Shown here piece by piece: positions 1-20,262 of a stretch of DNA of 64,000 bases (the stretch's first letter is position 1; the number at the start of each line of letters is the position of its first letter). Position numbers and translations under genes: made by a program. The stretch comes from Bacteroidales bacterium. Lineage in GTDB: Bacteria > Bacteroidota > Bacteroidia > Bacteroidales > VadinHA17. The notes below the pieces were generated by a model. The model was not told the origin of the DNA. It saw nothing but the letters and a program-made list of their open reading frames with translations, and did no database searches. The stretch lies in assembly GCA_038248855.1 (NCBI GenBank), contig JBBRXA010000002.1:45060-109059 (forward strand), written 5' to 3'.

Positions 1-1863
1 GAAGCTTTTCACCACTGGATGCCCAATATCAACACTGATCATCATGAAATGGGCGCTAATGCCACTTTCTTCTTCCAGCCCGGCATACAGACACGCAACA
101 ACCCGGTAGTACCCATTGAAAATCAGCAGGTAACAACGGTTATCAGCAAATATCACGCTAAGCATCTTGACAACATAGGCAGCCTTTACTATACTGAGGA
201 GAGCTTTGACGATTTCTATCTGGGCAAAGGCTCGGCATACCCCGATGTTCACGGATCGATTGGAATACTCTTCGAACAGGCCGGTGTGAAAGGCCATCTG
301 CGCGAAGTTCCTTCGGGGCTGCTCTCATTCCCCTTCGCCATCAGGAACCAGTTCACCGTTACCCTTTCCACAATCGAGGCAGGACTCGACATGAGGGTTC
401 AGCTGCTGGATATGCAGCGCGACTTCTACCGCACCGCCCTTCGTGAGGCGGAGGCATCGGCAGTAAAGGGATACCTCTTCACTACGAAGTATGACAGGGC
501 TGCAGGAGGCCAGTTCATCGAAAACCTGCTGAGACATAAGATTCAGGTGTACAGTTGCGGAAAGAATCTTTCCAAAAACGGTGAGAGTTACACAACAGTT
601 GACAGTTACTTCGTGCCGGCGAAACAGAAAGAATACAGGTTTGTAAGAAGCCTGTTCGAACCCATAACCCAGTTTAAGGATACCACCTTCTATGATATTT
701 CAACATGGGTTCTGCCCATGTCTTTCAATATCAGCTACACCACAGTAAATGCTGCAGAAAGTACAGGTCTTACCGGCGCTCTTCTTTCCGGTGCACCGGC
801 GCTTGACGGTCGCCTCACCGGAGCCGCAGAACCATATGCCTGGCTCTTCGAGTGGAATGAGTACTATACGCCCAAAGCTCTGTATATGTTGCAAAAGGCC
901 GGTCTTACGGCAAGGGTGGCAACGAAGAAATTCACACTCACCGAAGGAGAAAACCGGAAGAAATTCAATTACGGCACCATAATGGTGCAACCCTCCGGGA
1001 CCGATATGCCAGCGAAGGATGTTGGTGAACTGATGTCAAGGGTAGCTGAAGAGTGCGGGATAGAGATTTACGGTGCCTCCACAGGACTCACGCCTTCGGG
1101 CATCGACCTGGGAAGCAACGAATTCATTCCTCTCACAATGCCTTCGGTGCTGATGCTTATCGATGAAGGTATTCCGGCTGACGATGCCGGGGAGATATGG
1201 TACCTCACAGATGTACGATACAATATGCCTGTAACCATGACATCGGTCTCACGGCTTACGGCAGCCAATCTCTCAAGATACAACGTTATCATAATGGCAG
1301 GAAATCCCTCAATACCATCCTCAACGATTGAACGCATCAGGGACTGGAACCGTGCCGGAGGCACTTTAATTGCGTACAAGGGAGGAAACCGGTGGGTTGC
1401 CGACAATAAATTTGCAGATATTTCCTATATTGATCCTGCTGTCATGCCTGAGGGCATAGAAAGGAAATATACAGACAGGGCCAATGACAGGAATATCCAC
1501 ACCATTCCGGGGTCAATATTCGAAACCAGGCTTGATCTTACACATCCCCTGTGCTTCGGTTATATCAAACCGCTGTTACCGGTTTTCAAAAGCGAATCAA
1601 CGGCCGTTAAAAAGACAGAGAGTCCGTACAACAATCCGGTCATCTATACGGACAAGCCTTTGCTGAGCGGGTACAGTACGCCGGAGAACAATGAAAGGAT
1701 AAAAAACAGTGCGTTCGTCAGCGTTCACAGCGGCACGGGAAGGGTCATATCAATATATGACGACACAAACTTCAGGGTCATCTGGTACGGAACCAGCAAG
1801 ATATTTGCAAATGCAATCTTTTTCGGGCAGATACTCAGGCAGGAAAGCAGATACGGCCAATAG
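1..1863 (+). CDS. M14-family metallocarboxypeptidase-like protein, C-terminal part (5' end lies outside the window)
   Basis: The frame is open from base 1 (EAFHHW precedes the first Met at 19). HHEMG and GILFEQAG stretches resemble the late zinc-ligand and catalytic-Glu region of M14 peptidases. A long non-catalytic C-terminal domain follows. Stop at 1861-1863. Confidence 0.6.
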   Translation, partial: EAFHHWMPNINTDHHEMGANATFFFQPGIQTRNNPVVPIENQQVTTVISKYHAKHLDNIGSLYYTEESFDDFYLGKGSAYPDVHGSIGILFEQAGVKGHLREVPSGLLSFPFAIRNQFTVTLSTIEAGLDMRVQLLDMQRDFYRTALREAEASAVKGYLFTTKYDRAAGGQFIENLLRHKIQVYSCGKNLSKNGESYTTVDSYFVPAKQKEYRFVRSLFEPITQFKDTTFYDISTWVLPMSFNISYTTVNAAESTGLTGALLSGAPALDGRLTGAAEPYAWLFEWNEYYTPKALYMLQKAGLTARVATKKFTLTEGENRKKFNYGTIMVQPSGTDMPAKDVGELMSRVAEECGIEIYGASTGLTPSGIDLGSNEFIPLTMPSVLMLIDEGIPADDAGEIWYLTDVRYNMPVTMTSVSRLTAANLSRYNVIIMAGNPSIPSSTIERIRDWNRAGGTLIAYKGGNRWVADNKFADISYIDPAVMPEGIERKYTDRANDRNIHTIPGSIFETRLDLTHPLCFGYIKPLLPVFKSESTAVKKTESPYNNPVIYTDKPLLSGYSTPENNERIKNSAFVSVHSGTGRVISIYDDTNFRVIWYGTSKIFANAIFFGQILRQESRYGQ

Positions 1864-2359
1864 CGATATCTTCAATCTCGCGCAGCGACTTTTCAAGTGA
1901 AATAAACTGTAACGGATCACCTGAGAGTTCGAGGATTATCAGGCCTGCCGACTCCCCGAACCATACTTCATTTACGCCCAGCCTGGTGCGGATGACATTG
2001 CCGTAGAGGGTAAGGAGTTTCTGTACACCGATACCCAGGTCGTCACGGTGAGGTACTACCAGACCCAGAAGTGTGACACCACCGCATTCCTGTTGTGCGT
2101 CGGAGGGGCCGTGCGAAAATAACATCTCCCTCACCGAAACACCTTCTATGCTCTTTAACTTTTTGACAAGTGACTCGCAATCATCAGGTTCACCGGCCAT
2201 GTGTATTACCATGAATCCTTCCCGGCTGCAGACTTCATCACTCAGTTCGTGGAAGCCCAGACGGGTGCTGATGACTGACATGTGGGCTGAGAGTGCCTTC
2301 TGTATGAGGCCTGCCTCCCTGATCCTGTCCGTAATCTTTATTCCTGCTACTCTGACCAT
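1835..2359 (-). CDS. Tandem-duplicated TM1266-like (ACT/NikR-C-like) putative iron-only hydrogenase system regulator
   Basis: 174 aa made of two related halves (ISTRLGFHE...GFMVIHMAGEPDDCESLVKKLKSIEGVSV versus IRTRLGVNE...GLIILELSGDPLQFISLEKSLREIEDIAI). It starts 12 nt downstream of hydG on the same strand. Confidence 0.6.
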   Translation of the reverse strand: MVRVAGIKITDRIREAGLIQKALSAHMSVISTRLGFHELSDEVCSREGFMVIHMAGEPDDCESLVKKLKSIEGVSVREMLFSHGPSDAQQECGGVTLLGLVVPHRDDLGIGVQKLLTLYGNVIRTRLGVNEVWFGESAGLIILELSGDPLQFISLEKSLREIEDIAIGRICFPA

Positions 2360-2371
2360 AATTATGATAGT

Positions 2372-3793
2372 TTAATAATAGAGGTCTCTCTCTCCGTTCC
2401 TGATGAGTTCGATCTTCTCTCTCAATCCCTCCTTCATACCTTCATCCAGGTCCGCCATATTCTTTTCAATGGCCTTCCACCCTTTCTCCGCCAGTTCCGG
2501 TGTAGCATAATCAACCAGGTACTCGGAAAGGGTAAGAATGGCGTTCGGCGTGCAGTACCGCTTGATGAAGCCGGGCACTGAAAATTCCATGAAATGTTCC
2601 CCGGTACGCCCGAGACGGTAACAGGCAGTGCAGAATGACGGGAGGAAGTCGTCATTCATCAGCTCATCTATTACCTCAGCCAGCGACCTGTCATCACTGA
2701 TCCTGAACTGTTCGCGGTTCAGGTTCTGCTGCTCATTCTTCGATTCGGAGTAGCCTCCCAACTCAATTTTTGTCCCGCCGTCGATCTGTGACACCCCGAA
2801 AGACATCGCCTCCTTCCTGACATCTGCTGCCTCACGGGCAGTAAGTATCAGCCCGGTGTAGGGCACTGAAAGCCTCAGAATGGCTATAAGCTTTTTGAAA
2901 TCTTCATCACTGACAAGATACTTGTCGTTGAAATTAATCATTGAAGCATCCTTTATCCTGGGAAAAGAGATCGTATGAGGTCCAACATTGTAGCAAGCCT
3001 CAAGGTGGTTAGTATGACGAACCAGCCCCATGACCTCAAAACGCCAGTCGTATAAACCGAAGAGAGCCCCTATCCCCACATCGTCAATTCCTGCCTCCTG
3101 AGCCCGGTCGAGAGCGGTCAGTCTCCAGTCATAGTCTTTCTTTTTACCGCCGAGATGGTACCACGAATAGGCTTCCCGGTCATATGTCTCCTGAAATACC
3201 TGGTAAGTGCCGATGCCCGATTTACCAACTGTCCGGAAGCCGTCAATATCCAGGGGAGCGGCATTGACGTTAACCCTGCGGATCTCTCCCCTGCCCTTGC
3301 GCACCCCGTACACGGTTCTGACTGTATGGGCAATGTAATCAGGACTATACTCCGGATGCTCACCGTAGACCAGGATCAGCCTTTTCTGCCCGTTGTCCTC
3401 AAGAGCCTCTACTTCGGCAACTATCTGATTATCAGTAAGGGTCTTGCGGTGAGCGGCTTTGTTTGTAGCCCTGAATCCGCAATACATGCAGTTGTTACTG
3501 CATTTATTCCCGATGTACAACGGGGCGAAGAGAACTATCCTGTTGCCGTATACCTTTTTCTTGAGCTCCCTGGCGCCGTCCTTTATCTCCTCTGTAAGTC
3601 CGGCATCCGCACTTATAAGCGCAGCCGTCTCAGCCATTGTGAGCCTTTCCTTGGCAAGTGATTTGGCAATTATCTCCCTGATTCTTACCTTATCACAGGT
3701 TGTATTGTTAATGAGGGACCATATTTCAGACGGATCGATGAATGACTCCATCCTTCGGTCCGGTATGCTGCATTTTTCAGGGTTAAATTTCAT
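2372..3793 (-). CDS. hydG: [FeFe]-hydrogenase H-cluster radical SAM maturase HydG
   Basis: Radical-SAM motif CSNNCMYC (CX3CX2C). C-terminal CTAC-X22-C motif (CTACYRLGRTGEHFMEFSVPGFIKRYC), which is typical of HydG rather than ThiH. 473 aa. Confidence 0.9.
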   Translation of the reverse strand: MKFNPEKCSIPDRRMESFIDPSEIWSLINNTTCDKVRIREIIAKSLAKERLTMAETAALISADAGLTEEIKDGARELKKKVYGNRIVLFAPLYIGNKCSNNCMYCGFRATNKAAHRKTLTDNQIVAEVEALEDNGQKRLILVYGEHPEYSPDYIAHTVRTVYGVRKGRGEIRRVNVNAAPLDIDGFRTVGKSGIGTYQVFQETYDREAYSWYHLGGKKKDYDWRLTALDRAQEAGIDDVGIGALFGLYDWRFEVMGLVRHTNHLEACYNVGPHTISFPRIKDASMINFNDKYLVSDEDFKKLIAILRLSVPYTGLILTAREAADVRKEAMSFGVSQIDGGTKIELGGYSESKNEQQNLNREQFRISDDRSLAEVIDELMNDDFLPSFCTACYRLGRTGEHFMEFSVPGFIKRYCTPNAILTLSEYLVDYATPELAEKGWKAIEKNMADLDEGMKEGLREKIELIRNGERDLYY

Positions 3794-3870: not shown

Positions 3871-4785
3871 TCAGAAAATGAGTTCATTCATCTCATCTAT
3901 TCCACTTGCCAGAAAGCGTTCGGGCGGGATCCTCAGGTCATAGGCCCGGAGTTGTTTGTGAAAGAAAAGGGTCATCCTCTTGCCGGGGATATCCTTGTCA
4001 TATGTATCGAGATGTACGAAGATCTCCGGACTCTGACCGTCAGCGGGCGGAATGTAAACCATCCCCTTGGAAAAAAAGGCGTCGGCAGCGCACGAAACAG
4101 CGTAAAGTCCTTCCGCCGGCAACAGTTTCACTGTCTCTGTTACAGGTATTCGGATAAATGGTATGTCACTGGAGAATCCGGGATCCGCAGACTGAGCCTG
4201 GCCTATTACGATGTAGAAATGATCAAGATATGCATTTGCCCGCTGTATGTATCCTTCGGTAAGAGCCTGCCGGATTCGCGTCGAGCTCACTGTTTCATTC
4301 TGAACCTCCTGCATGGGGATCTCTTCCGCCTCGAACCCATACCTGCTCCTCCACTCCCATAGCTGATGATAGTCGCCGGTCTGGTTAAAGCCGAAATGGT
4401 GATTGTGACCCACAACTACTACCCTGGATTTCAGTATTCCGCAGAGGATATCACGGACAAAAGCTTCACTGGTGATCTGCGAAAAGTCCCTTGTAAATTC
4501 TATGATAATTACGTTTTCAAGACCTGCCTTCTGAAGCAGCTCAATCTTCTCCTCCTGTGAATTTATCAGTTTCAGGCCCTTGCCTGCGCTGTCAGGATAA
4601 AGCACCGCCCTCGGATGCGGATGAAAGGTGATAAGCACCGATTCGCCACCGTATTCAACTGCAAGTTTTTTCAGCCTTCGGAGAATCGTCTTATGACCGA
4701 TATGAACTCCGTCAAAAGTACCTGTTGTTACAATTGGTGAAGGGATTACCGCCGCATCTTCAAAACTCCTGAATATTCTCATCAA
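3871..4785 (-). CDS. ribF: Bifunctional riboflavin kinase / FMN adenylyltransferase
   Basis: N-terminal GTFDGVHIGH nucleotidyltransferase motif, C-terminal riboflavin-kinase-like half, 304 aa. Confidence 0.9.
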   Translation of the reverse strand: MMRIFRSFEDAAVIPSPIVTTGTFDGVHIGHKTILRRLKKLAVEYGGESVLITFHPHPRAVLYPDSAGKGLKLINSQEEKIELLQKAGLENVIIIEFTRDFSQITSEAFVRDILCGILKSRVVVVGHNHHFGFNQTGDYHQLWEWRSRYGFEAEEIPMQEVQNETVSSTRIRQALTEGYIQRANAYLDHFYIVIGQAQSADPGFSSDIPFIRIPVTETVKLLPAEGLYAVSCAADAFFSKGMVYIPPADGQSPEIFVHLDTYDKDIPGKRMTLFFHKQLRAYDLRIPPERFLASGIDEMNELIF

Positions 4786-4793: not shown

Positions 4794-5417
4794 TTATGCT
4801 TTCTCCTTGACAAAATAAGCAACCTTTTCAATTGAGGTGATCATGTCAAACTCTTCAAGATGAACATTGTCAGGCACATTGAGAGATACAGTTGTGAAAT
4901 TGAGAATACCCCTGATACCCTTGCTTACAATAGCTGAAGCAACTTTCCGTGCCTGGTCAGGGGGTACTGTAAGAATAGCGATGGAGATATTAAGGTCACT
5001 AATATGTTTACCAAGCTCATCGATATGATAACACCTGACACCGGAGATTACCTTGTCAACTTTCTGCGGGTCAACATCGAAAGCGGCGACCACGTTTAGT
5101 TTTGTTCTCTTCCCCTTGAAGTACCCGGTGACGGCCCGCCCGAGGTTTCCCTGGCCAATTACCGCCACATTCAGACCATTCTGATCATCTATTATATCAC
5201 CGATTGTCTTGATGAGTTCCCTTATATCATAGCCCTTGCGCATAACGCTTCCGTAACCGATAAGCATCAGGTCGCGCCTCACCTGGACAGCCGTGATATG
5301 CAGCAACGCTGCAAGTTCGTGGGAAAAGATGTAACTGCGGTTTTCCGTAAGAGTGCCCAGGAGGGCTCTTCTGTACTCACTAAGTCGTTCTACTGTTTTC
5401 CCTGGAAGTTTTTTCAT
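4794..5417 (-). CDS. rex: Redox-sensing (NADH/NAD+) transcriptional repressor Rex
   Basis: N-terminal winged-helix region (TVERLSEYRRALL) plus a Rossmann GxGxxG (VAVIGQGNLGRAV). 207 aa, typical Rex size. Confidence 0.9.
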   Translation of the reverse strand: MKKLPGKTVERLSEYRRALLGTLTENRSYIFSHELAALLHITAVQVRRDLMLIGYGSVMRKGYDIRELIKTIGDIIDDQNGLNVAVIGQGNLGRAVTGYFKGKRTKLNVVAAFDVDPQKVDKVISGVRCYHIDELGKHISDLNISIAILTVPPDQARKVASAIVSKGIRGILNFTTVSLNVPDNVHLEEFDMITSIEKVAYFVKEKA

Positions 5418-6562
5418 ATTTCAGCTTTTAAATTTTGCACCTGTACCCTGGGAATGATTACAGTGAAAGTGGTACCGCTGTCGGCGACGCTCTCCACATT
5501 GATAACCCCGTGATACAATTCAACAACTTTTTTCACTATTGACAGTCCCAGGCCGCTGCCGCTTATATTGCGCGTCTTGTCGTTCCTGATCCTTGAGAAC
5601 TCCTCGAAGAGCATCTTGCTCTCATCCATGCTCATTCCGATGCCGGTATCCTCCACCGCAATTGTAAACTCGTTCTCGCTGCAATCTACGCTTACGGTAA
5701 CCATGCCCCCGCTCTTGTTATATTTGACCGCGTTGGAGACAAGGTTGTTGAGAATTATCTCGAAATCATTGGGGTCTGCCCATATCTTCCCGCACCCGCT
5801 TATATTTGTCACGAACCGGATATCCTTGTGAATGGCATAGGGACTTACTGTAACGATAGCCATTGAGACCATTTCGCGAAGATCTATCTCGCGGCTCTTT
5901 TCAACCTGTCTTTCGAAGTTCACCTTGGTGAAATCAAGGAGGTCCATGATCAGGTTACGCATGCCGCCTATGCGCTGCAGTGATCTTTCAATGGCCGATT
6001 CATACTCGCTGACAGACTCTCCCATCTGTCTTTCCTGCATCATCCTCAGATAGCCCTCGATGGCATTCAGCGGAGCTTTCAGCTCATGTGAAAGTACCGA
6101 CAGAAACTGGAAGCGCACTTTTTTTCCTTCAACCTTAAGCTTGTGGGTAATGCGTTTCAGGTACTGCTGCTTGGTTATCTGCTCTATGGATGATTTAAGT
6201 TCCTGTGGCGTGAAAGGTTTGGGAATGAAATCAGTGGCTCCGTCGTTATGCGCCTTGACAGCAATATCAAGTGAGGCGTAAGATGTAATCATCGCCACAA
6301 CGATATCATAGTTTTTCTTCTTTACGTATTCTAATACCTCTACGCCCTGGATTCCCGGTAGCTTATTGTCAAGGAGCAATATGTCAGGCTTTTCCCTTTC
6401 AACAATCTCGATGCCCTCCTCCCCCGTTGCAGCCTCGATGACTTCATATGTATAGTCCTCATCCATAAATGGATAAGTGACATGAAAATTACGCAGGATC
6501 CTGGCTACACCGGATCTTATGCCCGGTTCATCGTCTACTACAAGTACTTTCAGCTGTGCCAT
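5414..6562 (-). CDS. Hybrid response-regulator / histidine kinase (REC-HisKA-HATPase)
   Basis: N-terminal REC (VLVVDDEPGIRSG...LLLDNKLPG...KPF), H-box SHELKAPLNAIEGY, and ATPase boxes (NLVSNAVKY, DTGIGM, GSGLGL). Overlaps the rex start by 4 nt. Confidence 0.9.
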   Translation of the reverse strand: MAQLKVLVVDDEPGIRSGVARILRNFHVTYPFMDEDYTYEVIEAATGEEGIEIVEREKPDILLLDNKLPGIQGVEVLEYVKKKNYDIVVAMITSYASLDIAVKAHNDGATDFIPKPFTPQELKSSIEQITKQQYLKRITHKLKVEGKKVRFQFLSVLSHELKAPLNAIEGYLRMMQERQMGESVSEYESAIERSLQRIGGMRNLIMDLLDFTKVNFERQVEKSREIDLREMVSMAIVTVSPYAIHKDIRFVTNISGCGKIWADPNDFEIILNNLVSNAVKYNKSGGMVTVSVDCSENEFTIAVEDTGIGMSMDESKMLFEEFSRIRNDKTRNISGSGLGLSIVKKVVELYHGVINVESVADSGTTFTVIIPRVQVQNLKAEI

Positions 6563-6563: not shown

Positions 6564-6959
6564 TCAAACCTTTAACAGTTTCTTTATTTCCTGATCCAGC
6601 TGCTCAGGCCTGATTCCCTTTTCAAGATACAGGTCAGCCCTTATCCAGTCGCGTTCCTGCTCACTGTTCAGGCTGAAAGTGATCCCTGTTTCCTTGGCGA
6701 CAGCGGTGGCAAGAATGACCGGAACATCGGGGTATCTGCGTTTCAGTTTATAACACAGTATAAAACCGCTGTCATCACTCTCCATCATAAGGTCGAATAT
6801 TGCAATGTCAGGCCTTATTTTTGAGATTACCTGTTCTGCTTCCCCCTGGCTCTCCACCGGTATGACCTCGTAACCGGACTTCCGAAGGTGATATGCCACC
6901 TGAAAAAGATAATCAGGGTCATCATCCGCCACCAACACCGTAAACACCTTTTTATTCAT
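6564..6959 (-). CDS. Single-domain response regulator (REC only)
   Basis: 131 aa with VLVADDDPD, FDLMMES and LEKG receiver features and no output domain. Its stop is 1 nt from the next gene's start. Confidence 0.85.
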   Translation of the reverse strand: MNKKVFTVLVADDDPDYLFQVAYHLRKSGYEVIPVESQGEAEQVISKIRPDIAIFDLMMESDDSGFILCYKLKRRYPDVPVILATAVAKETGITFSLNSEQERDWIRADLYLEKGIRPEQLDQEIKKLLKV

Positions 6960-7013: not shown

Positions 7014-8978
7014 TTATTCAGGTCTCTTCGGGAGAATAATCCTGAATTTAGTTCCTGTGGGGCCCTTGGCCGGATCGTTGTTTGTTTCAACCGTTATCTG
7101 GCCCTTATGCATTTTGACAATGCCGTAAGTAGTCGCCAGCCCGAGACCTGTTCCTTTACCGATACTCTTGGTGGTAAAGAAGGGTTCGAATATTTTTGGC
7201 CGGTCTTCATCCCTGATCCCTGATCCTGTATCTGAAACGTTAAAAATAACATCGCTGACAGTGTCCTCAAGGCATATCTCTATTGTTCCTCCTTCGGGCA
7301 TGGCGTCAACGGCGTTCTTAATGAGGTTTGTCAGCACCTGGGTCATCTGTTCTGCATCAATTGATGCATTCGGATCTGTTGTACGGTCATCCACGGTGAC
7401 CTTTATGGTTTCAGGTACAATCACACCTGAGACACTGGCCTCTGCCAGTTCCCTGACGTTAATATACTGACGGTTGACCTGGTTCTTGCGGGCGAAATTG
7501 AGCAGTCCGCCAACGATCTTCTTGCACCGTGCTGCCTGTTCGGCAATGAGTTCCAGATCCTGTCTTACGGGATTGTCAGGTGTGCATTCGTCAATCAGGA
7601 TGTTGCTGTACATTATCACAACACCGAGCGGATTGTTCAGTTCATGAGCAATGCCTGCGGAGAGCTGTCCCATATGCGCCAGTTTCTCCGACTGCTTCAG
7701 GGCATTCTGCATTGTGGTCAGCTTTGCGTTCGAAAGGGCAAGATCCTTCACGGACCTGTGCAGCTTCTCAATGGTGTAGGGCAGGCACATCTCCTCCTCG
7801 GCCAGCCCCTTGACAATGGCTACGGCATGGTCTATGCACGTGTCATACCCGCAGGCTCCGCAGTTTAGATGGTCCGTTGGGGCAACCTTACCCATCGAAG
7901 CCAGTACATTATTTATATCTTCATTTTCAGGGAGTTCCCGCCGGAGGTCCTCCGGCTTGAATTTTATACTCAGGTCGAGCCTGTCATAGGTCTGGAGGTT
8001 GTTCTGCCACTCTTCGGAATCTATTGTCTCCATCTTCTGGTGAGCGTAACCGCTAACCAGGGCCCTCCTGTTATACTGTTTGCCTCCCTTGCTCATACCG
8101 GGTCCCATAATGCATCCTTCGCAGCAAAGCAGCTCCAGGTGCTGGCCTCCGATCATTCCCTCTTCAAATTCCTTAATCGCTTCCTGGAAACCTATTCTTC
8201 CCTCAGCGGCTATGATATTGCCGGTGATGGCATCGTCATTGACCCCGGCAGCCTGCAGAAGTCCCCTGGTGACGGGGAAGATCGCACCGCGGCCGCCAAG
8301 GGGAGCATCAAATCCGGACGGTTTGAAAGTACCTTCAGCGATGCCAGCACTCCTGAACATCTCTCTCAGTTCGGTGAAGGTTATGGAAGCATCAACTTCA
8401 GGTGTCTCTGCCTTCTTCGCGACACAGGGGCCGATGAATACTATCTTCAGGTCGCTGCCGTACTTTTCCCTCATCACTCTCGTCATGGCCAGCATGGGTG
8501 AGACAACCGGGACAAGGTTATCAGTCAGGTCAGGGTGGTAGAACCTTATGAAACTTACAATTGCAGGGCAGTCTGATGAGATATAATTCTTATCTCCGGC
8601 TTCACTGATCAGCTGCCTGTAACGGTGTGCAACCAGGTCAGCACCGAATGAGACTTCTGAGACATAATCGAATCCCAGGGCCCTGATCATTCCCACCAGG
8701 TTCCTGTAATCGCCTGCATCAGGGAATTCCGCCGGGAAGCTGGGAGCCACAATTGCCGCTGTCTTTTCAGAATTTTCAAGGAGTTTCTGAACCTGGTCAG
8801 TGGTATTCAGAAAGACCTTTGCACCCTGGCTGCATACCTTGGTGCAGTTTCCGCAGGCAACACATCTTTCCGTTATCACCTCTGCCTGGCCTCCTACTAT
8901 ACGGATGGCGCGGGCAGGGCACTCCCTGACGCATGTATAACATGTACGGCATAATTCCTTTATGGTGTAGACCAGCAT
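7014..8978 (-). CDS. Sensory [FeFe]-hydrogenase-like protein fused to a histidine kinase (HydS-type domain + HisKA + HATPase)
   Basis: Two N-terminal 4Fe-4S motifs ([23 protein letters not shown]). H-domain-like motifs [17 protein letters not shown] and [13 protein letters not shown]. Accessory CGAC-X4-C-X16-C motif. Then H-box [12 protein letters not shown] and ATPase boxes ([22 protein letters not shown]). Confidence 0.85.
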
Positions 8979-8991: not shown

Positions 8992-10707
8992 TTAAAGAAG
9001 CACATCCCTTTTCACAAAGTGAGTAAGAAAGAGCTTCATATCAGCCAGTTCGTCATTTTCCCTGAAGACCTTTTCGTAAAGCGTGCTTATGGAAGCTGAT
9101 TTTTCAGGGCTTCTGACAGCCTCCTGCTCATCGGAGAGATATACGTATTTCGACCTCTGGCGTACTGCCTCCTTCGACCCTGCGGGGATCATTCCGCCGC
9201 CGTTGACGCAACCACCGGGACAGGTCATTACCTCGACAAGGTCATACAGGGCGCCGCCTCCCGGCATCTGCCTCAGTTTTTCAATCCCGGGCAATCCGTC
9301 TATTACTGCCACGGAGTATTCAGTGCCCCCTATAATCACTGTCACCTCCCTGAAGGAACCTGACTGGCGAAGTTTTTTAAACATCTGCTTCTCGGCCTCC
9401 TTTTCGCCTGTCCTGGCCATAAGGGAGCGAAGCACTGATTCGGCAATCCCTCCCGAGGTCTCGGCAAGGAGTGCCGCTGAGCTTCTTGATGACATGGGAT
9501 CGTCAGCTGCCTCAGGGTCAATATTTGAAATATCGATGCCGTATAGCCCGATGAGCCTGGAAAGCTCTCTGACTGTAAGTACTGTATCAATATCACTTAT
9601 ACCCTTTCGCGTCATGCTGTCACGTCTGGCTTCGAACTTCATGGCTGTGCAGGGAGAAACAGATACGGTATAGACCCGTGATTTTTCCTTGCTGGTAACA
9701 ACAGCTGATTTTATGATGGCACCTGTAATTTGCTGTGGCGTTTTCAGGGGAGAGAGATACTGGAGCAGATCAGGATAGACCTGTTCGCAGTGTTTTACCC
9801 ATGCAGGGCAGGCAGACACTATTAGCGGTCTATTTCCGTTGCCGGCTTTGTTCGCAGCAACTGCGTCAGTCAGCTCCCTGATAAGGATGTCAGTTCCCGT
9901 TCCCGAAAGGAATATCTTATCGAAACCTATCTTGCGCAGAACAGCATTCAGCACGCGGTCAAAGTCGCGGACATACTTGATGCCCATCTCTTCTGCAAGT
10001 GCGTACGGCACGAGGGGGCTGTACTGGATGACCCTGATAACGTCACTCTTGCTGAGGTGCTCCTGGACCTCGGAGATATAATGTTTCTCATGCAGGGCAC
10101 CCGTGGGGCAGACCAGCACACACTGTCCGCAGTGGATGCAGCTTGAGAAGTTCAGGTCGCGGTCCATTGCCGGCCCTACGTGTGTAGAGCGGCCGCGGCC
10201 GATAAAGTCTATTGATCTGGCCGTTATCACCTCTTCGCAGACTCTGATGCATCTTCCGCAGAGAATGCATTTCGAGAGCTCTCGGACAATGGCAGGACTC
10301 GATTGGTCACGGCGCGGTTTGATCTTGCTGCTGCGTATGCGCCGCTCTCTTACCTGCAGCTGGTCTGACAGCTTCTGTAATTCACAGTCCAGATTACGGT
10401 CACAGTAAAGACAGTCGTCAGGATGGTTGGAGAGCAGCAGTTCTACTATCGTTTTGCGGGCCCTTATCACGCGCGGCGAGTGAGTCCTGATTTTCATCCA
10501 TTCCTCCACCGGAGCTGAACAGGCAGTTACAAGCCGGTCCTTTCCCTCCACCTCCACGACACACATCCTGCAGGCTCCGGTAGGTGTAAACTCGGCCATT
10601 CGGCAAAGTGTGGGTATCATTATCCCGTTACGGTTAAGCGCCGAGAGGATAGTTTCTCCCTTCTCTGCCTTGATGCTCCTGCTATTTACTTCTATTGTGA
10701 ACTGCAT
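8992..10707 (-). CDS. hydA: [FeFe]-hydrogenase large subunit (HydA-like, HydABC-type) with non-canonical H-cluster motifs
   Basis: N-terminal 2Fe-2S domain (CRMAEF..GACRMC), HPDDCLYCDRNLDC, two 4Fe-4S motifs (CILCGRCIRVC, CIHCGQCVLVCP), and an H-domain with VSACPAW, SPCTAMKFE and EVMTCPGGCVNGGG. C-terminal SSU-like ISTLYEKVF. Confidence 0.85.
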   Translation of the reverse strand: MQFTIEVNSRSIKAEKGETILSALNRNGIMIPTLCRMAEFTPTGACRMCVVEVEGKDRLVTACSAPVEEWMKIRTHSPRVIRARKTIVELLLSNHPDDCLYCDRNLDCELQKLSDQLQVRERRIRSSKIKPRRDQSSPAIVRELSKCILCGRCIRVCEEVITARSIDFIGRGRSTHVGPAMDRDLNFSSCIHCGQCVLVCPTGALHEKHYISEVQEHLSKSDVIRVIQYSPLVPYALAEEMGIKYVRDFDRVLNAVLRKIGFDKIFLSGTGTDILIRELTDAVAANKAGNGNRPLIVSACPAWVKHCEQVYPDLLQYLSPLKTPQQITGAIIKSAVVTSKEKSRVYTVSVSPCTAMKFEARRDSMTRKGISDIDTVLTVRELSRLIGLYGIDISNIDPEAADDPMSSRSSAALLAETSGGIAESVLRSLMARTGEKEAEKQMFKKLRQSGSFREVTVIIGGTEYSVAVIDGLPGIEKLRQMPGGGALYDLVEVMTCPGGCVNGGGMIPAGSKEAVRQRSKYVYLSDEQEAVRSPEKSASISTLYEKVFRENDELADMKLFLTHFVKRDVLL

Positions 10708-10711: not shown

Positions 10712-12661
10712 TTATTTTACTGAGATGGCGCTGAACTTGCAGATATCAAAACAGATCCCGCAGCCGATGCATTTGTCATCCACGATGAAGAAAGGCTGGA
10801 GACGGGTTCCGTAGATCGCATTTGTTGGGCATTTTGATGCGCAGGCTGTGCACCCGGTACATTTATCGACATCGATGGAGAAGGTCCGCAGACCCCTGCA
10901 GACGTTAGCCCTGCACCGGCGGTCGAATATATGCTCTTCAAACTCCTCACGGTAGTTGTTGAGGGCGCTTATGAAAGGATTGGGAGCTGTCTGCCCCAGG
11001 CCGCAAAGGGATGTATCCTTCATCACTGAGGCAATAGTCTCGAGCTGCATCACTCCCTTGAATCTCTCAAGGGTGGCATTGGAGTCTTCGGAATGGGGTT
11101 TGCGTATGACATTCTCGAGTATCTCGAGCATGCGCCCTGTGCCCTCGCGGCAGGGGATGCACTTTCCGCAGCTCTCATTATGTATGAAACCCATATAATA
11201 CCTGACCAGGTCTACCATACATGTGGTGTCATCGACAATCACCAATCCGCCTGATCCCATTGCGGTGCCTGCCTCCCGCAACGCTTCATAGTCGACGGGA
11301 ATGTCAAGGTTCTTTTCAGTAAGGAAGGTTCCTGACGGCCCGCCTATCTGAAGGGTCTTGAAGGCGCGTCCTTCCTTAATACCGTCAGCAATACCCTCGA
11401 TAATAGTTCTGAAGGTGGTGCCCATCTCCACCTCCACCAGGCCAATAAGCCTTCCGCGCCCTGCTATCGAAAAGAGTTTTGTGCCCTTGCTCCCTTCGGT
11501 TCCCATGCTGCGGAACCATTCAGGACCGTGTTCCATAATAAGCGGCACATTCATCAGGGTTTCCACATTATTGATGACTGTGGGCTTGCCGTAAAGACCG
11601 CTGGTAGTCGGATAAGGAGGCTTGAGTTCAGGCATCCCTCGTTTACCCTCCAGGCTCCCGATCAGGGCGGTTTCCTCTCCGCATACGAAAGCTCCTGCCT
11701 CATTGCGGATAATAATCTCCAGGTTAAAGCCGCTGGAAAAAATATTGTGGCCTGTAAGGCCGTAGTCGCGGGCCGCCTCCAGGGCTCTTTCAAGTTTTTC
11801 AAGTGAATGGACAGCCCCCGCTTTGAGGAAGATTATGGCTGTGGATGAGCCTACGGCATATGATGCGATACAGATGCCTTCGATCAGCCTGTGGGGGTCA
11901 CCCTCAAGAACGGTCCTGTCAGTATATGCCCCCGGATCACTCTCCTTGGCGTTGCAGATCAGATATCTGTTATCAGATGAAGCATTGAGGGCGTACTTCC
12001 ACTTCAGTCCTGTTTTGAAACCTCCGCCGCTGCGACCCCGCAATCCGCTCTTTTCAATGATGTCACAAACCTCTTCAAATGTGTAGTTCCGGACGGTTTT
12101 GAGAAACTGCAGGTAGCCGCCGCGCGCAATATACTCCTCGATGCTGCAGGGATCATAGCACCCGCAGTTGCTGAGGATAACCCTTTTCTGCAGCCTGAAC
12201 CACGGAATCTCATTTATGAAGGGGATTCCCTGCCACGCTTCGAAGCCAGTATTCCCGTCCTGCGCAACCAGATCCTCCTCAGGCATATCATTGTGGAAGA
12301 CGCCATTCAGGAGTGACTCGACCTTGTCTTCGGTTATGTTTCTGAATATGAGCTTATTCTTGCCGGGCAGATGGATACAGACAATAGGTTCGAAGGAGGC
12401 GGGACCGTGGCAGCCGACCCTGACAACCTCGGCTTTAATATCCAGGTCGGTGAGATACTCTTCTATGGCTCCTGCGCTTTTCAGTGCTCCCGAGATAACC
12501 GCTGCTGTGCCTGTATTGACGTATATTACGGGTTTAGAGGGTTTTTCACGCCGTATTTCCGACAACCTTTTCTTAGTCTCGGGCTTAAGGGTATCGGAAT
12601 GATGTTTAAGTACCTCCTCAATCAGGAACTTCCTGACACCGCTTACGGGGTTTTCTTTCAT
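10712..12661 (-). CDS. hydB: NuoF-like NAD(P)H/FMN-binding hydrogenase subunit (HydB-type)
   Basis: LRGRSGGGFKTGLKWK (FMN/NADH site), ESCGKCIPCREGT (N3-type 4Fe-4S), and C-terminal 2x4Fe-4S (CTGCTACASKCP, CIGCGICFDIC). 649 aa. Confidence 0.9.
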   Translation of the reverse strand: MKENPVSGVRKFLIEEVLKHHSDTLKPETKKRLSEIRREKPSKPVIYVNTGTAAVISGALKSAGAIEEYLTDLDIKAEVVRVGCHGPASFEPIVCIHLPGKNKLIFRNITEDKVESLLNGVFHNDMPEEDLVAQDGNTGFEAWQGIPFINEIPWFRLQKRVILSNCGCYDPCSIEEYIARGGYLQFLKTVRNYTFEEVCDIIEKSGLRGRSGGGFKTGLKWKYALNASSDNRYLICNAKESDPGAYTDRTVLEGDPHRLIEGICIASYAVGSSTAIIFLKAGAVHSLEKLERALEAARDYGLTGHNIFSSGFNLEIIIRNEAGAFVCGEETALIGSLEGKRGMPELKPPYPTTSGLYGKPTVINNVETLMNVPLIMEHGPEWFRSMGTEGSKGTKLFSIAGRGRLIGLVEVEMGTTFRTIIEGIADGIKEGRAFKTLQIGGPSGTFLTEKNLDIPVDYEALREAGTAMGSGGLVIVDDTTCMVDLVRYYMGFIHNESCGKCIPCREGTGRMLEILENVIRKPHSEDSNATLERFKGVMQLETIASVMKDTSLCGLGQTAPNPFISALNNYREEFEEHIFDRRCRANVCRGLRTFSIDVDKCTGCTACASKCPTNAIYGTRLQPFFIVDDKCIGCGICFDICKFSAISVK

Positions 12662-13134
12662 TGGAGATCCGCTAAGGTTTTGAGTTTCCTGACCATCTCA
12701 GGAATATCTTCAGATCTGAGATGAGAATAGTAGTCATCTCCCACTTTTATGACGGGGCCTTCATTGCATCCGCCCATGCAGGCGGTGAGCTCGAAGCTGA
12801 ACCGACCATCACGGGTTGTCTGACCCGGATCAGTGCCAAAAGCCTCCTTCACAGCGTTAATGATTGGTGTGGAACCGTTTATAAAACAGGTAGTTCCGTT
12901 ACATATCCGCAGGTGTACCTTTCCGAAGGGAACAAACCTGAACTGGTCATAAAAAGTGGCCAGCCCGTATATTTTGGTGGTTGACATACCCAGGAAACTT
13001 CCAATTTTTACTATTGCTTCCTCAGGTATAAAACCCTCTTCAGCCTGGACCTCCTGGAGGATCGGGATGAGATTGTCATGACTTCCTGACCGGTAACGCC
13101 TGAGTATATCTTCTATATTGCTCATTATGATCAA
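12658..13134 (-). CDS. hydC: NuoE-like thioredoxin-fold [2Fe-2S] hydrogenase subunit (HydC-type)
   Basis: CNGTTC ... CMGGCNEGPV cysteine pattern. 158 aa. 4-nt overlap with the hydB start. Confidence 0.9.
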   Translation of the reverse strand: MIIMSNIEDILRRYRSGSHDNLIPILQEVQAEEGFIPEEAIVKIGSFLGMSTTKIYGLATFYDQFRFVPFGKVHLRICNGTTCFINGSTPIINAVKEAFGTDPGQTTRDGRFSFELTACMGGCNEGPVIKVGDDYYSHLRSEDIPEMVRKLKTLADLQ

Positions 13135-13188: not shown

Positions 13189-13206
13189 TTGTTATTTAAT
13201 TAACAA
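13189..13206. promoter_or_regulatory. Candidate Rex operator (TTGTTATTTAATTAACAA)
   Basis: 18-bp near-perfect palindrome, TTGTTA-N6-TAACAA, in the divergent promoter region. It matches the TTGTTAA-N4-TTAACAA Rex consensus at 13 of 14 specified positions. A weaker half-site-like TTGTTAATTCAAAAACAT lies directly upstream (13172-13189). Confidence 0.5.
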
Positions 13207-13291: not shown

Positions 13292-13549
13292 TTGAAACAG
13301 TCGTTTGAGATAGAAATATGCCTTGGCAGCTCCTGCTTCTCAAGGGGAAACAGGGAGGCAGTGCAGCTAATCAGGGAGTATCTGCGCAAGAACCACCTTG
13401 ATGACAAAGTTATGTTCAAGGGCGCCCGGTGCCTGAACCGGTGCGATGAGGGGCCTTTTATAATTATCAACGGCAAGACCTTCGAACAGTCAGGCATTCA
13501 GGATCTGGAAAAGCTTCTTGAGCAGGAGTTTTCAGAGCTGAACAGGTGA
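13292..13549 (+). CDS. Small thioredoxin-like [2Fe-2S] ferredoxin-domain protein
   Basis: 85 aa with a CLGSSC ... CLNRC cysteine pattern (Cx4C...Cx3C, as in the NuoE/HydC fold). The ORF can only start at TTG 13292 because an in-frame TAA lies immediately upstream. Confidence 0.65.
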   Translation: MKQSFEIEICLGSSCFSRGNREAVQLIREYLRKNHLDDKVMFKGARCLNRCDEGPFIIINGKTFEQSGIQDLEKLLEQEFSELNR

Positions 13550-13564: not shown

Positions 13565-15451
13565 ATGAATGAGAAAGACCAGGTAATATATATCAACGAG
13601 GAGAAGTGCAGAAATTCCTACTCATGTGTGAGAGTCTGCCCGGTCAATGCCATTGAAGTCAAACCGGAACGCCAGCATCCCCTGGTAATTGCTGACCGTT
13701 GCATCGGTTGTGGACTCTGTTTTCTTTCCTGTTCTCCGCGGGCCATCGAGTTCAGGAATTCCATCGGAAATGTCACAAAAATCCTGAAGTCTCCGCGCAA
13801 GTCCGCCGCCCTCATCGCACCGAGTATCGCCTCGGAGTTTGATGACATAACCGATTACCGCAAGCTGGTTGGCATGATACGGCAGCTCGGGTTTACCTAT
13901 GTGCACGAGGTGTCATTCGGCGTAGATCTTGTAGCTCACGCTTACAAGCAGCTTTTTGAAGAGGCGCACGGCAAATATTATATCACTGCCAACTGCCCTT
14001 CAATAGTGGAAATGATTGAGAAATATCACCCGGGACTGGTTCCCAATCTTGCCCCCATCATTTCACCTATGGTGGCGACTGCCAGGCTTACGCGAGATCT
14101 CTACGGGGATGATGTTGCAAATGTGTTTATAGGGCCGTGCATTGACTCAAAGGAAGAGGCTGCTCTTTACAAGGACAGGCTGATAGAAGGAGTCCTGACC
14201 TTTATCGAGCTGCGCCAGCTGTTTGATGAATCCGAAATACAGGAGAAGGGCGTAAAAATGTCCGAATTCGACCCTCCTCTCGGAAACTGGGGTGCCCTTT
14301 ACCCCTATCCTGCCGGAATCCTGCAGGCCGCCGGCATAAAACGCGATCTCGTCTCGAGCCACGTGATTACAGCTTCAGGTGCGGAGGATGTCAGGGAAGC
14401 CATTAAGGACTTTGACCACCACATTGACACTATCAGGCACCATTTTAACCTCTTTTTCTGCCAGGGGTGTCTTCTGGGCCCGGGAATGCTGAGGCACGAC
14501 GAGCGTTTCCGGCGGCGTTCACTTGTAAAACAGTACGCCGAACGGAGAGTAGCAGCCCTGGACAAGGAACAGTGGAACAAGGACATGAAACGGTGGTCAG
14601 CGCTGGACCTCACCAGAACTTTCACCGTAAATGATCAGCGAATACCCGAACCACCGGAAGAGGCTGTAAATGAGGTCCTTAAAATAATCGGGAAAGACCG
14701 GAAATCCGAGGAACTCAACTGCAACGCCTGCGGTTACGGCTCATGCCGTGCTTTTGCTTCAACGGTGGCAATGGGGCTGGCGGTGCCGGAGATGTGCCAC
14801 ACCTACAATCTAAGGAACAAACAGGAATATATCGAGACTCTCAGGCAAACAAACCGGAAACTCTCGGAGACAAAAAAGGCTCTGAAGGAATCCGAAGAGC
14901 AGGCTATGCGTGAGAAGGATACGGCGCAGAATGCTTCGGAGACTATGAACAGCATGCTGAACAAGCTGCCCAACGGGGTGGTGATAGTTGACAATGATCT
15001 CAAGATACTTCATTCGAACGAAAGTTTCCTGAATATTATAGGCGAGGATGCCCGGGCGATTGCAGATATTATCCCCGGCCTTCGGGGGGCCGACCTGAAG
15101 ACCCTGCTCCCTTTCAATGTATACAATATCTTTTCTTTCGTCCTCAAGGAGAATGAGTCAGTCATAAGCCGTGATGTGCAGCTGGAAGACCGTATGTTCA
15201 ACATATCCATCTTTCCGATACGCCAGAACAAGATAGCCGGTGCGGTAATCCGCGACCTCTTCTCGCCCGAGGTGCAACGCGAGGAAGTCATAGTAAGGGT
15301 GTCTGACGTGATCGACAAAAACCTCGAGATGGTCCAGAAAATAGGCTTTCTCCTCGGCGAAGGAGCTGCCGAAACGGAACAGATGCTGAACTCAATTGTT
15401 GAATCGTTCCGTCAGAAGAAGGAAACTCAGAAGGGCAAGAATGAGCAGTGA
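13565..15451 (+). CDS. hydS: Sensory [FeFe]-hydrogenase-like protein with C-terminal PAS domain (HydS-type)
   Basis: 2x4Fe-4S (CRNSYSCVRVCP, CIGCGLCFLSC). H-domain-like TANCPSIV, GPCIDSKEE and LFFCQGCLLGPGM. CNAC-X4-C-X16-C motif. A coiled linker, then a PAS-like segment (LPNGVVIVDNDLKILHSNESFLNIIG). Confidence 0.85.
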   Translation: MNEKDQVIYINEEKCRNSYSCVRVCPVNAIEVKPERQHPLVIADRCIGCGLCFLSCSPRAIEFRNSIGNVTKILKSPRKSAALIAPSIASEFDDITDYRKLVGMIRQLGFTYVHEVSFGVDLVAHAYKQLFEEAHGKYYITANCPSIVEMIEKYHPGLVPNLAPIISPMVATARLTRDLYGDDVANVFIGPCIDSKEEAALYKDRLIEGVLTFIELRQLFDESEIQEKGVKMSEFDPPLGNWGALYPYPAGILQAAGIKRDLVSSHVITASGAEDVREAIKDFDHHIDTIRHHFNLFFCQGCLLGPGMLRHDERFRRRSLVKQYAERRVAALDKEQWNKDMKRWSALDLTRTFTVNDQRIPEPPEEAVNEVLKIIGKDRKSEELNCNACGYGSCRAFASTVAMGLAVPEMCHTYNLRNKQEYIETLRQTNRKLSETKKALKESEEQAMREKDTAQNASETMNSMLNKLPNGVVIVDNDLKILHSNESFLNIIGEDARAIADIIPGLRGADLKTLLPFNVYNIFSFVLKENESVISRDVQLEDRMFNISIFPIRQNKIAGAVIRDLFSPEVQREEVIVRVSDVIDKNLEMVQKIGFLLGEGAAETEQMLNSIVESFRQKKETQKGKNEQ

Positions 15452-16637
15452 AATGGATAGGGATTTCTTCATAGAGGTCAACAGTCAGCAGAGAAACCAT
15501 TACGGCGAACGCATATGCGGCGATGTCTTCATCTCAAGGAATGTGCGTGAGGAGAACCGTATAGTTGCAGTACTGTCTGACGGAATGGGCCACGGGGTGA
15601 AGGCAAATATCCTTGCCACCCTGACCTCAACAATGGCCCTCAATTTTACCCGTGAGCACAAGGAGCCTGACAGGATTGCGGAAATAATAATGAATACACT
15701 TCCCGTCTGCTCGGTGAGGAAGATCAGTTATGCAACCTTCACCATAGTCGACATTGAAAGTGACGGCAGGGCCAACATACTTGAATATGACAATCCGCAG
15801 TGCATAATTCTCAGGGGAAATCAGCCATTTGACCCTGACTGGAAGGATGTCATGCTGGATAAGGGTAAGAATGCAGGAAAGAAGCTTCGCAAATGCTCAT
15901 TTTATCCTGCAAAAGAGGACAGGATAATAATGCTTTCCGACGGTGTGGCCCAGAGCGGTATGGGCAGCAATGCCTGGCCCCTGGGATGGGAACGTGACAG
16001 TGTAATGCAGTACGCACTCTCACTTGTCACCGGAGAGTCTTCGATATCGGCGCACAACCTCGCGGGAAAGATCGTTACAATGGCTTATAAATATGATAGT
16101 TATGAGGCTAAAGACGATATTTCCTGTGCCATACTGTACTTCAGGGAACCCCGCAGGCTGCTGCTGTGCACAGGCCCGCCGTTTGACGAATTGAAAGACA
16201 AAGAGCTCTCTGCCAGGGTCGCAGGTTATGACGGCAAGGTAATACTCTGCGGAGGAACCACTGCCGATATAGTAGCACGCGAACTGAAACGGAAAATTGT
16301 CGACGAGCTGATTTTTGAGGACCCTGACCTGCCACCTGAAAGTTTCATGGAAGGCATTGACCTTGTCACCGAAGGAATACTCACACTGCAAAAAGTCAAC
16401 GAGATACTGAAGAGTTACAACAACAGCGTCAGGATTGGAAAAGGTCCTGCAGACAAGATCGTAAAACTGATAATGGAGAGCGATGAGATCAATTTCTTCG
16501 TCGGTACAAGAATAAATGTCGCTCACCAGGACCCGACCCTTCCCGTCGACCTCGAAATACGCCGGACGGTTGTAAAGCGTATAGCCAGGATCCTCGAGGA
16601 TAAATGGCTTAAACTTGTCAGTGTCGAGTATATCTGA
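15441..16637 (+). CDS. PP2C/SpoIIE-family serine phosphatase with an extra C-terminal domain
   Basis: CGDVF...VLSDGMGHGVKA...MLSDGV motifs. I chose ATG 15441 (11-nt overlap with the hydS stop) over the ORF-track start at 15396. Residues after about 250 form a separate conserved-looking domain. Confidence 0.8.
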   Translation: MSSEMDRDFFIEVNSQQRNHYGERICGDVFISRNVREENRIVAVLSDGMGHGVKANILATLTSTMALNFTREHKEPDRIAEIIMNTLPVCSVRKISYATFTIVDIESDGRANILEYDNPQCIILRGNQPFDPDWKDVMLDKGKNAGKKLRKCSFYPAKEDRIIMLSDGVAQSGMGSNAWPLGWERDSVMQYALSLVTGESSISAHNLAGKIVTMAYKYDSYEAKDDISCAILYFREPRRLLLCTGPPFDELKDKELSARVAGYDGKVILCGGTTADIVARELKRKIVDELIFEDPDLPPESFMEGIDLVTEGILTLQKVNEILKSYNNSVRIGKGPADKIVKLIMESDEINFFVGTRINVAHQDPTLPVDLEIRRTVVKRIARILEDKWLKLVSVEYI

Positions 16638-20180: not shown

Positions 20181-20262
20181 CCCGTTACTTCGCTCACGGT
20201 AAACGGAATCGTAGAATCTCTGGATACTTACAAAAGCAATGGCAATGCCCGTCCTGTAAATA

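Follow-up and report, generated by a model that had tools for sequence, protein, structure and literature searches.

The closest described relatives of the gene reported here are the sensory [FeFe] hydrogenases TmHydS (M2f, group C) and TamHydS (M2e, group D, from Thermoanaerobacter mathranii), both of which bind the H-cluster and turn over slowly despite pocket changes similar to those described below (PMC8163306, PMC10055695), and the kinase-linked proteins of HydDB (2016), in which group C was split into C1 'histidine kinase-linked (putative)', C2 and C3 (PMC5037454). The present analysis deals with one gene, designated hydS-HK, on the minus strand of a stretch of 64,000 nucleotides (hereafter the window) from an uncultured Bacteroidales bacterium (assembly GCA_038248855.1, contig JBBRXA010000002.1). 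The gene product, a putative sensory [FeFe] hydrogenase to which a histidine kinase is joined, is another member of this already catalogued and widespread class.

In the bfu gene clusters of sub-type V, described in 2024 for Hydrogenedentota and Caldithrix abyssi, the protein encoded after bfuA, named BfuT, is a hydrogen-sensing hydrogenase of group C that bears a histidine-kinase domain, and an extra bfuT, the implications of which were called 'unclear', was noted upstream of bfuC in three Bacteroidota genomes (PMC11406978). Cultured hosts of orthologs named in that paper include Caldithrix abyssi, Tenuifilum thalassicum, Perlabentimonas gracilis and Williamwhitmania taraxaci. The Bacteroidales isolate Petrimonas mucosa was reported to carry a C1 enzyme near its hnd genes (PMC7768429). 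The labels of the kinase-linked class are inconsistent, the Petrimonas enzyme being given as C1 (PMC7768429) and the Caldithrix type as C3 (PMC11406978), and group C is still defined by a PAS domain in reviews and in the biochemical literature (PMC11216029, PMC13104023).

Compared with BfuT of sub-type V and with HydDB C1, hydS-HK has the same hydrogenase and kinase string at the same site, directly downstream of a bifurcating hydA, and the Bacteroidota layout with a second bfuT upstream of bfuC is also the layout of the window. A homolog from a Calditrichota metagenome-assembled genome (MAG) has 53% identity over residues 2-651 and the same neighbours. Nothing essential differs from BfuT, the details of the hydS-HK clade being an Asp at the position of C299 of the hydrogenase CpI and an extra Cys, C285.

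Domain architecture of hydS-HK

The open reading frame of hydS-HK comprises 654 amino acids (aa), with an ATG start and with the stop codon included in its coordinates. Domains were assigned with Pfam and NCBIfam, an AF2 model and Foldseek, as follows.

7014..8978, minus strand: hydS-HK, whole protein, a putative sensory [FeFe] hydrogenase joined to a histidine kinase (open reading frame; Pfam and NCBIfam domains; AF2; Foldseek)
8820..8969, minus strand: 2x[4Fe-4S] ferredoxin-like domain, aa 4-53 (Fer4-family matches, the best being Fer4_10, E 3.5e-7)
8100..8765, minus strand: H-domain, aa 72-293 (Pfam Fe_hyd_lg_C, E 5e-42, 144.6 bits against a cut-off of 22.1)
7779..7868, minus strand: accessory cluster motif C373x2C376x4C381x16C398, aa 371-400 (PF04060, E 1.3e-8; 2.8e-10 for the isolated segment)
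7488..7784, minus strand: signalling helix and DHp, aa 399-497 (DSSP of the AF2 model; HisKA, E 4.7e-13)
7023..7358, minus strand: HATPase_c catalytic domain, aa 541-652 (Pfam, E 2.1e-25, 89.8 bits)

This order is the one that had been read from the letters alone in an earlier annotation of the stretch (the original prediction), which had also matched the Cx2Cx4Cx16C spacing to TmHydS; the motif is indeed reported for M2e and M2f enzymes, TamHydS and TmHydS included (PMC8163306).

An exhaustive HMMER search was performed with the sensor half alone, and 944 representatives were obtained at E <= 1e-30. The best 150 of the 944, each standing for one 50%-identity cluster, were taken as the representative set; about 45 of them bear a kinase and about 67 have a tail of PAS length. 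In addition, genomes were scanned for hydS-HK homologs with one genome per species, and 80 genome-encoded homologs and their loci were inspected.

The two N-terminal cluster motifs (C10x2C13x2C16x3C20 and C39x2C42x2C45x3C49) are largely kept throughout the family, seven of the eight Cys being conserved at >=90% in the 150 representatives and all eight in the 43 kinase-type representatives, in which the four Cys of the accessory motif are invariant. Fe_hyd_lg_C, the FeS motif and HATPase_c were detected in 43/43 of these kinase-bearing representatives and HisKA in 41/43. In hydS-HK itself, the HisKA match covers aa 436-499 (49.4 bits, Pfam), and a full set of kinase boxes was recognized, namely the H-box (H445ELNNPL), the N-box (N551/N555), the G1 box (D583xGxG), the F-box (F597/F600) and the G2 box (G609xGxGL). 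N551, N555, D583, G585, G587, F597, F600, G609, G611 and G613 are invariant or conserved at >=90% in the 43 kinase-type representatives. By these E-values, together with the family-wide conservation, a chance origin of the architecture is ruled out.

The AF2 model, a monomer predicted from an alignment of 43 divergent kinase-type sequences, was obtained with a pLDDT of 91.2 and a pTM of 0.73. By Foldseek, the first ~430 aa of the model matched [FeFe] hydrogenases (E 3e-20 to CbA5H, DdH, HydA and CpI) and the C-terminal 234 aa matched the kinase core of ZraS (31% identity and TMt 0.78 to 9jfj); none of the 50 Foldseek matches listed was described as a sensory HydS. According to DSSP, a predicted unbroken helix (399-464) starts right after C398 and passes H445, and is followed by the second DHp helix (470-497) and then by the catalytic (CA) domain. 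No Pfam match to a PAS domain was found in hydS-HK, and the stretch of 47 residues from C398 to H445 is helical throughout in the model, in agreement with the claim that no PAS domain intervenes. Among the 43 kinase-bearing representatives, any single PAS family was matched in at most five.

H-cluster ligands and the active-site pocket

Residues were mapped by HMMER alignments of hydS-HK to CpI, HydA, HDCR and other solved hydrogenase structures, and the top-scoring CpI entry was 6glz, an engineered C299D variant. The three loops of the H-domain read ISSD136-C137-PAIV (L1), IG183-P-C185-VAK188-KAE191 (L2) and E282-L-L284-C285-C286-E-G-C289 (L3). In the alignment, D136, C137, G183, C185, K188 and E191 correspond to C299, C300, M353, C355, K358 and E361 of CpI, respectively, and L284, C286 and C289 to M497, C499 and C503, respectively. 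Relative to C499-C503 of CpI there is a one-residue deletion between C286 and C289, which gives Cx2C where group A has Cx3C, and this Cx2C spacing of the L3 ligand pair is common to the whole sensory family.

C137, C185, C286 and C289 are thus the counterparts of the H-cluster ligands; they and the four accessory Cys are conserved at >=90% in the 150 representatives, and by alignment to CpI and HydA no H-cluster Cys ligand is missing. The retention of four ligand positions had been proposed by the original prediction and holds; its reading of 'CCEGC' needs correction in that the first Cys of this string is not a ligand, the L3 pair being C286/C289. The alternative pair C285/C289, which would restore the group A spacing, was rejected, as the position of C285 is occupied by F, A, C or Y among the 150 representatives and the PAS-type paralog in the window has FFCQGC. 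The extra Cys C285 (codon 8124-8126), which directly precedes the ligand C286, was observed in 60/80 kinase-type homologs, with F, A or Y in the wider family.

The positions by which the [2Fe] subcluster is anchored are kept as well: K188 (K358), E191 (E361), P79/S80 (P231/S232) and P161 (P324). In group A enzymes, K358 anchors a cyanide ligand of the [2Fe] site. The equivalent Lys is present in 80/80 kinase-type proteins from genomes.

The canonical proton path is lost but for position 299, which holds D136: E279 is deleted, and E282, R286 and S319 are replaced by R119, L123 and V156, respectively. The canonical motifs of group A (TSCCPxW, MPCxxKxxE and ExMxCxxGCxxG) are absent from hydS-HK, and TIGR02512 scored 86 bits against a cut-off of 406. 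The exchange of C299, M353 and M497 for D136, G183 and L284, respectively, bears out the substitutions that had been noticed beside the active site and is as expected of the sensory groups C and D; M353 is replaced by Gly in most sensory hydrogenases (PMC10055695). In the CpI C299D variant, the carboxylate forms a hydrogen bond with the bridgehead amine (PMC6226526).

Asp at the C299 position is invariant in the relatives labelled as Bacteroidales or Bacteroidota (120/120 close relatives; 36 genome proteins). Elsewhere the position holds Thr or Ser in other lineages, and Ala, Pro, Thr, Ser or Cys in the wider family. Asp136 as a hallmark of the entire family was therefore rejected, being limited to relatives with these labels.

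Spacing between sensor and kinase

The distance from the last accessory Cys (C398) to the phospho-accepting His (H445) is 47 residues in 78/80 genome-encoded homologs and 40 residues in the other 2/80. In 26 divergent direct fusions the same distance was 47 (14 proteins), 40 (4), 54 (4), 33 (3) or 68 (1), all of which equal 47 ± 7n. A few divergent representatives were off-register, at least three of them with a visibly different H-box. Spacing in steps of a heptad is the pattern expected of a register-sensitive coiled-coil signalling helix, and we take the quantised linker to be the strongest sign that the sequences offer of a mechanical coupling between sensor and kinase.

Comparison with other described systems

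Three elements define the sensory groups C and D, namely 2x[4Fe-4S], the H-domain and Cx2Cx4Cx16C, encoded with a group A bifurcating hydrogenase, and all were found in and around hydS-HK. The PAS domain that marks classical group C (M2f) is absent, and the features of the kinase-fused 'BfuT' of sub-type V are present.

With TmHydS, hydS-HK shares the 2x[4Fe-4S] domain, all H-domain ligands, the Cx2Cx4Cx16C motif, the loss of C299 and of M497, the change of M353 to Gly and the link to HydABC. The two differ in output (PAS in TmHydS, HisKA/HATPase here), at the C299 position (Ala vs Asp) and at the M497 position (Ser vs Leu), and TmHydS-type proteins have Ser/Thr phosphatase or kinase proteins as partners, whereas the downstream partners of hydS-HK are two-component receivers. 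TamHydS likewise has no PAS domain and has the same accessory motif and the change of M497 to Leu, and its gene adjoins a bifurcating hydrogenase and a gene for a histidine-kinase-like ATPase; it differs in that it ends after the accessory domain, the kinase-like protein being separate, and in that M353 is replaced by Ser rather than Gly.

In the [NiFe] group 2b system HoxBC/HoxJ, a slow, inhibitor-tolerant hydrogenase reports H2 to a histidine kinase by which hydrogenase genes are controlled (PMC5037454, PMC8163306). The metal site and the fold are unrelated to those of hydS-HK, sensing and kinase activity reside in different polypeptides and a PAS-like domain is present in HoxJ, so that the likeness is one of analogy, not of membership. 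On the kinase side, the transmitter core resembles that of cytoplasmic HisKA kinases (type ZraS/AtoS/FixL); it has 30-31% identity to ZraS and contains all catalytic boxes, but the input to it is a metallo-enzyme domain connected by a single helix, in contrast to the periplasmic, PAS or HAMP input of those kinases.

Distribution and synteny of the family

In a word-indexed search, more than 120 cluster representatives with >=78% identity and an identical domain string were found, most of the named ones being called Bacteroidales. Full-length homologs (residues ~2-651, 46-96% identity) are present in MAGs of at least 12 phyla, the labels of which are Bacteroidota, Calditrichota, Desulfobacterota, Myxococcota, Planctomycetota, Hydrogenedentota, Acidobacteriota, Fibrobacterota, Verrucomicrobiota, Melainabacteria, Actinomycetota, Elusimicrobiota and Spirochaetota. 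A single origin of the kinase fusion is unsupported, because about 11 changes between kinase and non-kinase forms are needed on a crude neighbour-joining tree of the sensor module.

In other lineages, the sensor module has a further kind of partner: of 19 scanned representatives with long tails, 16 carry it in fusion with a sigma-54 activator AAA+ domain, and HTH_8 is present in 12 of these 16. Some of these fusions have an intervening PAS domain; such proteins would be one-component H2-responsive enhancer-binding proteins.

The order of genes around the sensor-kinase was compared across related loci from at least 12 phyla, the denominators varying from 49 to 76. HydA is encoded directly upstream of the sensor-kinase in 67/76 loci, and HydC and HydB upstream of it in 57/65. 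A stand-alone receiver (REC) follows directly downstream in 57/76 loci and lies between hydA and the sensor in some others, and a homolog of the REC-kinase protein is encoded within 1.2 kb downstream in 69/72. Rex and HydG were each found in 30/49.

Gene neighbourhood in the window

In the window, hydS-HK is the fourth gene of a tightly packed string on the minus strand, in the order hydC, hydB, hydA, hydS-HK, REC, REC-kinase, Rex, RibF, HydG and a TM1266-like gene. The gap from the hydA stop to hydS-HK is 13 nt. The two downstream receiver proteins had gone unmentioned in the original prediction, as had the PAS-type paralog treated in the following section.

12658..13134, minus strand: hydC, NuoE-like [2Fe-2S] subunit, first gene of the operon (2Fe-2S_thioredx, E 5e-45; NF005722 above cut-off)
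10712..12661, minus strand: hydB, NuoF-like flavoprotein subunit (Complex1_51K, NADH_4Fe-4S, Fer4)
8992..10707, minus strand: hydA, catalytic subunit, HydABC-type (group A3/A6-like) (NF040763, E 1.4e-163, 545 bits, below the cut-off of 765; TIGR02512; Fe_hyd_lg_C, 206.8 bits)
6564..6959, minus strand: stand-alone receiver, 131 aa, with D12/D13, D56, T85 and K114 (Response_reg, E 2.5e-14)
5414..6562, minus strand: REC-HisKA-HATPase protein (REC-kinase), 382 aa, with D65 and H159 (Pfam)
4794..5417, minus strand: Rex, a repressor that senses NADH/NAD+, encoded within the operon (NF003995, 192 bits, cut-off 126)
3871..4785, minus strand: RibF-like FAD synthetase/riboflavin kinase, downstream of rex
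2372..3793, minus strand: hydG, H-cluster maturase (TIGR03955, 480 bits against a cut-off of 312)
1835..2359, minus strand: putative hydrogenase-system regulator of the TM1266/CPF_0552 family, in the same string as hydG
13189..13206: palindrome TTGTTATTTAATTAACAA, resembling a Rex operator, between hydC and the operon of the PAS-type HydS, in the region of divergent promoters upstream of hydC

The palindrome TTGTTATTTAATTAACAA was the sole match in the 64 kb window when scanned with the Rex operator consensus of clostridial Rex work. Of 57 related loci, 22 have a similar box no more than 350 bp upstream of hydC; these account for 27 of the 45 matches in all loci. A scan of the operon for sigma-70 promoters and intrinsic terminators gave fewer terminator-like sites than were found in shuffled sequences, and the sigma-70 model does not cover Bacteroidota promoters. 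RibF co-occurs in many Bacteroidota loci. The gene for the maturase HydE belongs to this contig too, a short way beyond the end of the window (19774-20862 of locus L001; TIGR03956, 321 bits). A search of the window for a DNA-binding response regulator gave no match.

Elsewhere in the window, a 1432-aa protein with two BcrAD/BadFG ATPase domains, DUF2229 and a 2-hydroxyglutaryl-CoA dehydratase D-like region (fused activase/dehydratase-like) is encoded at 48825-53123 on the plus strand, with a small Fer4 protein encoded just upstream at 47920-48693.

A second sensor of the PAS type

A PAS-type paralog of hydS-HK, located 4.6 kb away, is transcribed divergently from hydCBA, and its gene is preceded and followed by the genes listed here.

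13292..13549, plus strand: 85-aa [2Fe-2S] open reading frame preceding the PAS-type HydS
13565..15451, plus strand: PAS-type HydS, 628 aa (Pfam)
15396..16637, plus strand: SpoIIE/PP2C phosphatase gene after the PAS-type HydS

This order is presumably the classical HydS/hfs-type arrangement. The paralog has 40% identity to hydS-HK over ~500 aligned residues (aa 2-492 of hydS-HK); the strong similarity runs from the N-terminal clusters through the H-domain and the accessory motif into the initial portion of the helix after it, and it is essentially in the output module that the two differ. The paralog was found upstream in 15/55 related loci, all of them of the Bacteroidota type.

In the paralog, the K358 equivalent is Ser (GPCIDSKEE) and the C299 position is Asn. 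Since the equivalent Lys is replaced in 17/17 Bacteroidota orthologs of the paralog in the related loci, the PAS-type protein may not hold a standard [2Fe] subcluster.

Functional interpretation

We consider it probable that hydS-HK is a putative group C-type sensory [FeFe] hydrogenase in which a HisKA/HATPase transmitter replaces the C-terminal PAS domain, and that, co-transcribed with hydCBA, it most likely helps to control hydCBA. On the basis of the sequence, we infer that it would bind the [2Fe] subcluster and respond to H2, and we likewise infer the direction of the response and the partners in phosphotransfer.

By the mechanism proposed, the H-cluster would be made by HydE, HydG and HydF and held in a pocket with all ligands and the cyanide-anchoring Lys. 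As the fast proton-transfer path is lacking, the reaction with H2 would be slow, and the redox or protonation state of the H-cluster would report the H2 level, while the two N-terminal [4Fe-4S] clusters would let the site exchange electrons and be reset. A conformational change would travel through the accessory [4Fe-4S] domain, from which C398 leads directly into the helix of ~66 residues that carries H445. The fixed heptad spacing from Cys to His implies a rigid, register-sensitive coiled coil, which would be formed in a homodimer as in other signalling-helix kinases, and the state of the sensor would shift the balance between autokinase and phosphatase. The phosphoryl group would then be passed to the stand-alone REC (D56), to the REC-kinase (D65) or to both, and Rex, with the conserved Rex-like box upstream of hydC, would add control by NADH/NAD+. 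Because the accessory cluster of TamHydS keeps its redox state under H2 (PMC13104023), the role of the accessory domain can only be structural, and a pivot is favoured.

Several points weigh against this interpretation. The sensory role of group C and D hydrogenases is itself putative and is still so called for the PAS-type HydS (PMC8924675, PMC13104023), and no experimental work on any kinase-fused HydS was found in the searchable literature. In TamHydS, H2 leaves the C-terminal cluster unreduced, and alteration of that cluster barely affects catalysis (PMC13104023). The dimeric coiled coil is extrapolated from a monomer model. HydF was searched for in the window and was not found, the cassette of hydCBA, sensor-kinase, REC and REC-kinase holds no recognisable output domain, DNA-binding or enzymatic, and none of the 80 loci inspected has a DNA-binding output for the REC pair. 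Finally, the true H2 sensor of the locus could be the PAS paralog, although that protein is without K358.

Among the alternatives, a sensor of redox state or electron flux survives best, although we regard it as unlikely. Here the Fe-S clusters, with or without [2Fe], would register how far ferredoxin or HydABC is reduced, the protein would be an accessory 'T' subunit of the HydABC complex and the kinase would relay the redox state of the cell. The gene adjoins hydA and is probably co-transcribed with it over the 13-nt gap, the dicluster domain at the N-terminus is of the ferredoxin type that typically serves for electron entry, and Rex in the operon ties the locus to redox sensing; the kinase-bearing protein is treated as the BfuT subunit (PMC11406978), and the unresponsiveness of the C-terminal cluster of TamHydS to H2 also points this way (PMC13104023). 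A pure Fe-S sensor, however, would have no need for the bridging Cys, K358/E361, P231/S232 and P324, of which the Lys is kept in all 80 kinase-type proteins and lost in the PAS paralog, and related HydS bind a functional H-cluster (PMC8163306, PMC10055695). Sensing of H2 and sensing of redox are not mutually exclusive, because the state of the H-cluster depends on both.

An elaboration of the H2-sensor interpretation is offered as speculation, and we think it quite unlikely in its full form: the accessory domain would be a mechanical pivot by which the state of the H-cluster is turned into register or rotation of the DHp, REC and REC-kinase would act post-translationally on HydABC or Rex, and in Bacteroidota the kinase type (with Lys358 and Asp299) and the PAS type (with Lys358 lost) would form two channels, for H2 and for another cue.

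[FeFe] H-clusters and [4Fe-4S] clusters are O2-sensitive, and a sensor of inhibitors or damage might be imagined, in which the lability of the H-cluster or of Fe-S clusters to O2, CO or NO would switch the kinase under oxidants and so protect the hydrogenase system. Fe-S proteins are often gas sensors (PMC13104023), and sensory-type enzymes have unusual reactivity with CO and O2 (PMC8163306). Nothing in the locus, however, suggests oxidative-stress functions, the strict linkage being to hydCBA and the H-cluster maturases, and TmHydS and TamHydS are more, not less, CO-tolerant (PMC8163306), so that this explanation is very improbable.

That hydS-HK is mainly a slow catalytic hydrogenase, with a kinase module that answers another cue or is a degenerate remnant, has hardly any likelihood: TmHydS and TamHydS do keep low catalytic activity (PMC8163306, PMC10055695) and Asp at the C299 position supports catalysis, 30-80% of H2-release activity being kept in CpI C299D and HydA1 C169D (PMC6226526), but the rest of the proton path is missing, the kinase boxes are invariant or nearly so in 43 divergent representatives, the heptad steps of the linker speak for selection on the coupling of sensor to kinase and receiver genes are conserved beside the sensor-kinase.

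An H2 sensor accounts better than these rivals for the conservation of the [2Fe]-site residues, for the intactness of the kinase and for the quantised linker. As to the one-protein converter of H2 into a phosphoryl signal that had been envisaged in the original prediction, the traits that can be tested on the sequence (ligands, K358/E361, kinase boxes and helix) fit it, and the implied novelty falls away, the class being already catalogued. What is new relative to the literature consulted is refinements, namely the heptad-quantised linker, the conserved cassette of REC and REC-kinase without a recognisable output domain, the clade-specific Asp299, the loss of Lys358 from the PAS paralog and the conserved Rex box.

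Significance

H2 sensing and signal export by [FeFe] hydrogenases of groups C and D are still putative, and in the TamHydS study of 2026 it was concluded that interaction partners need to be identified first (PMC13104023); a kinase fusion has its output built in. Autophosphorylation of one His would be a simple biochemical read-out of the state of the H-cluster, with candidate receivers encoded next door, and the fixed helical linker of 47 residues is a concrete and mutable hypothesis for the transmission of the signal. Proteins of the hydS-HK type are probably the most direct experimental handle on signalling by sensory [FeFe] hydrogenases, and a modular converter of H2 into phosphorylation could find use in biosensors. 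The family occurs widely among anaerobes that make H2 via bifurcating hydrogenases, and it therefore probably shapes the response of fermenters to the build-up of H2.

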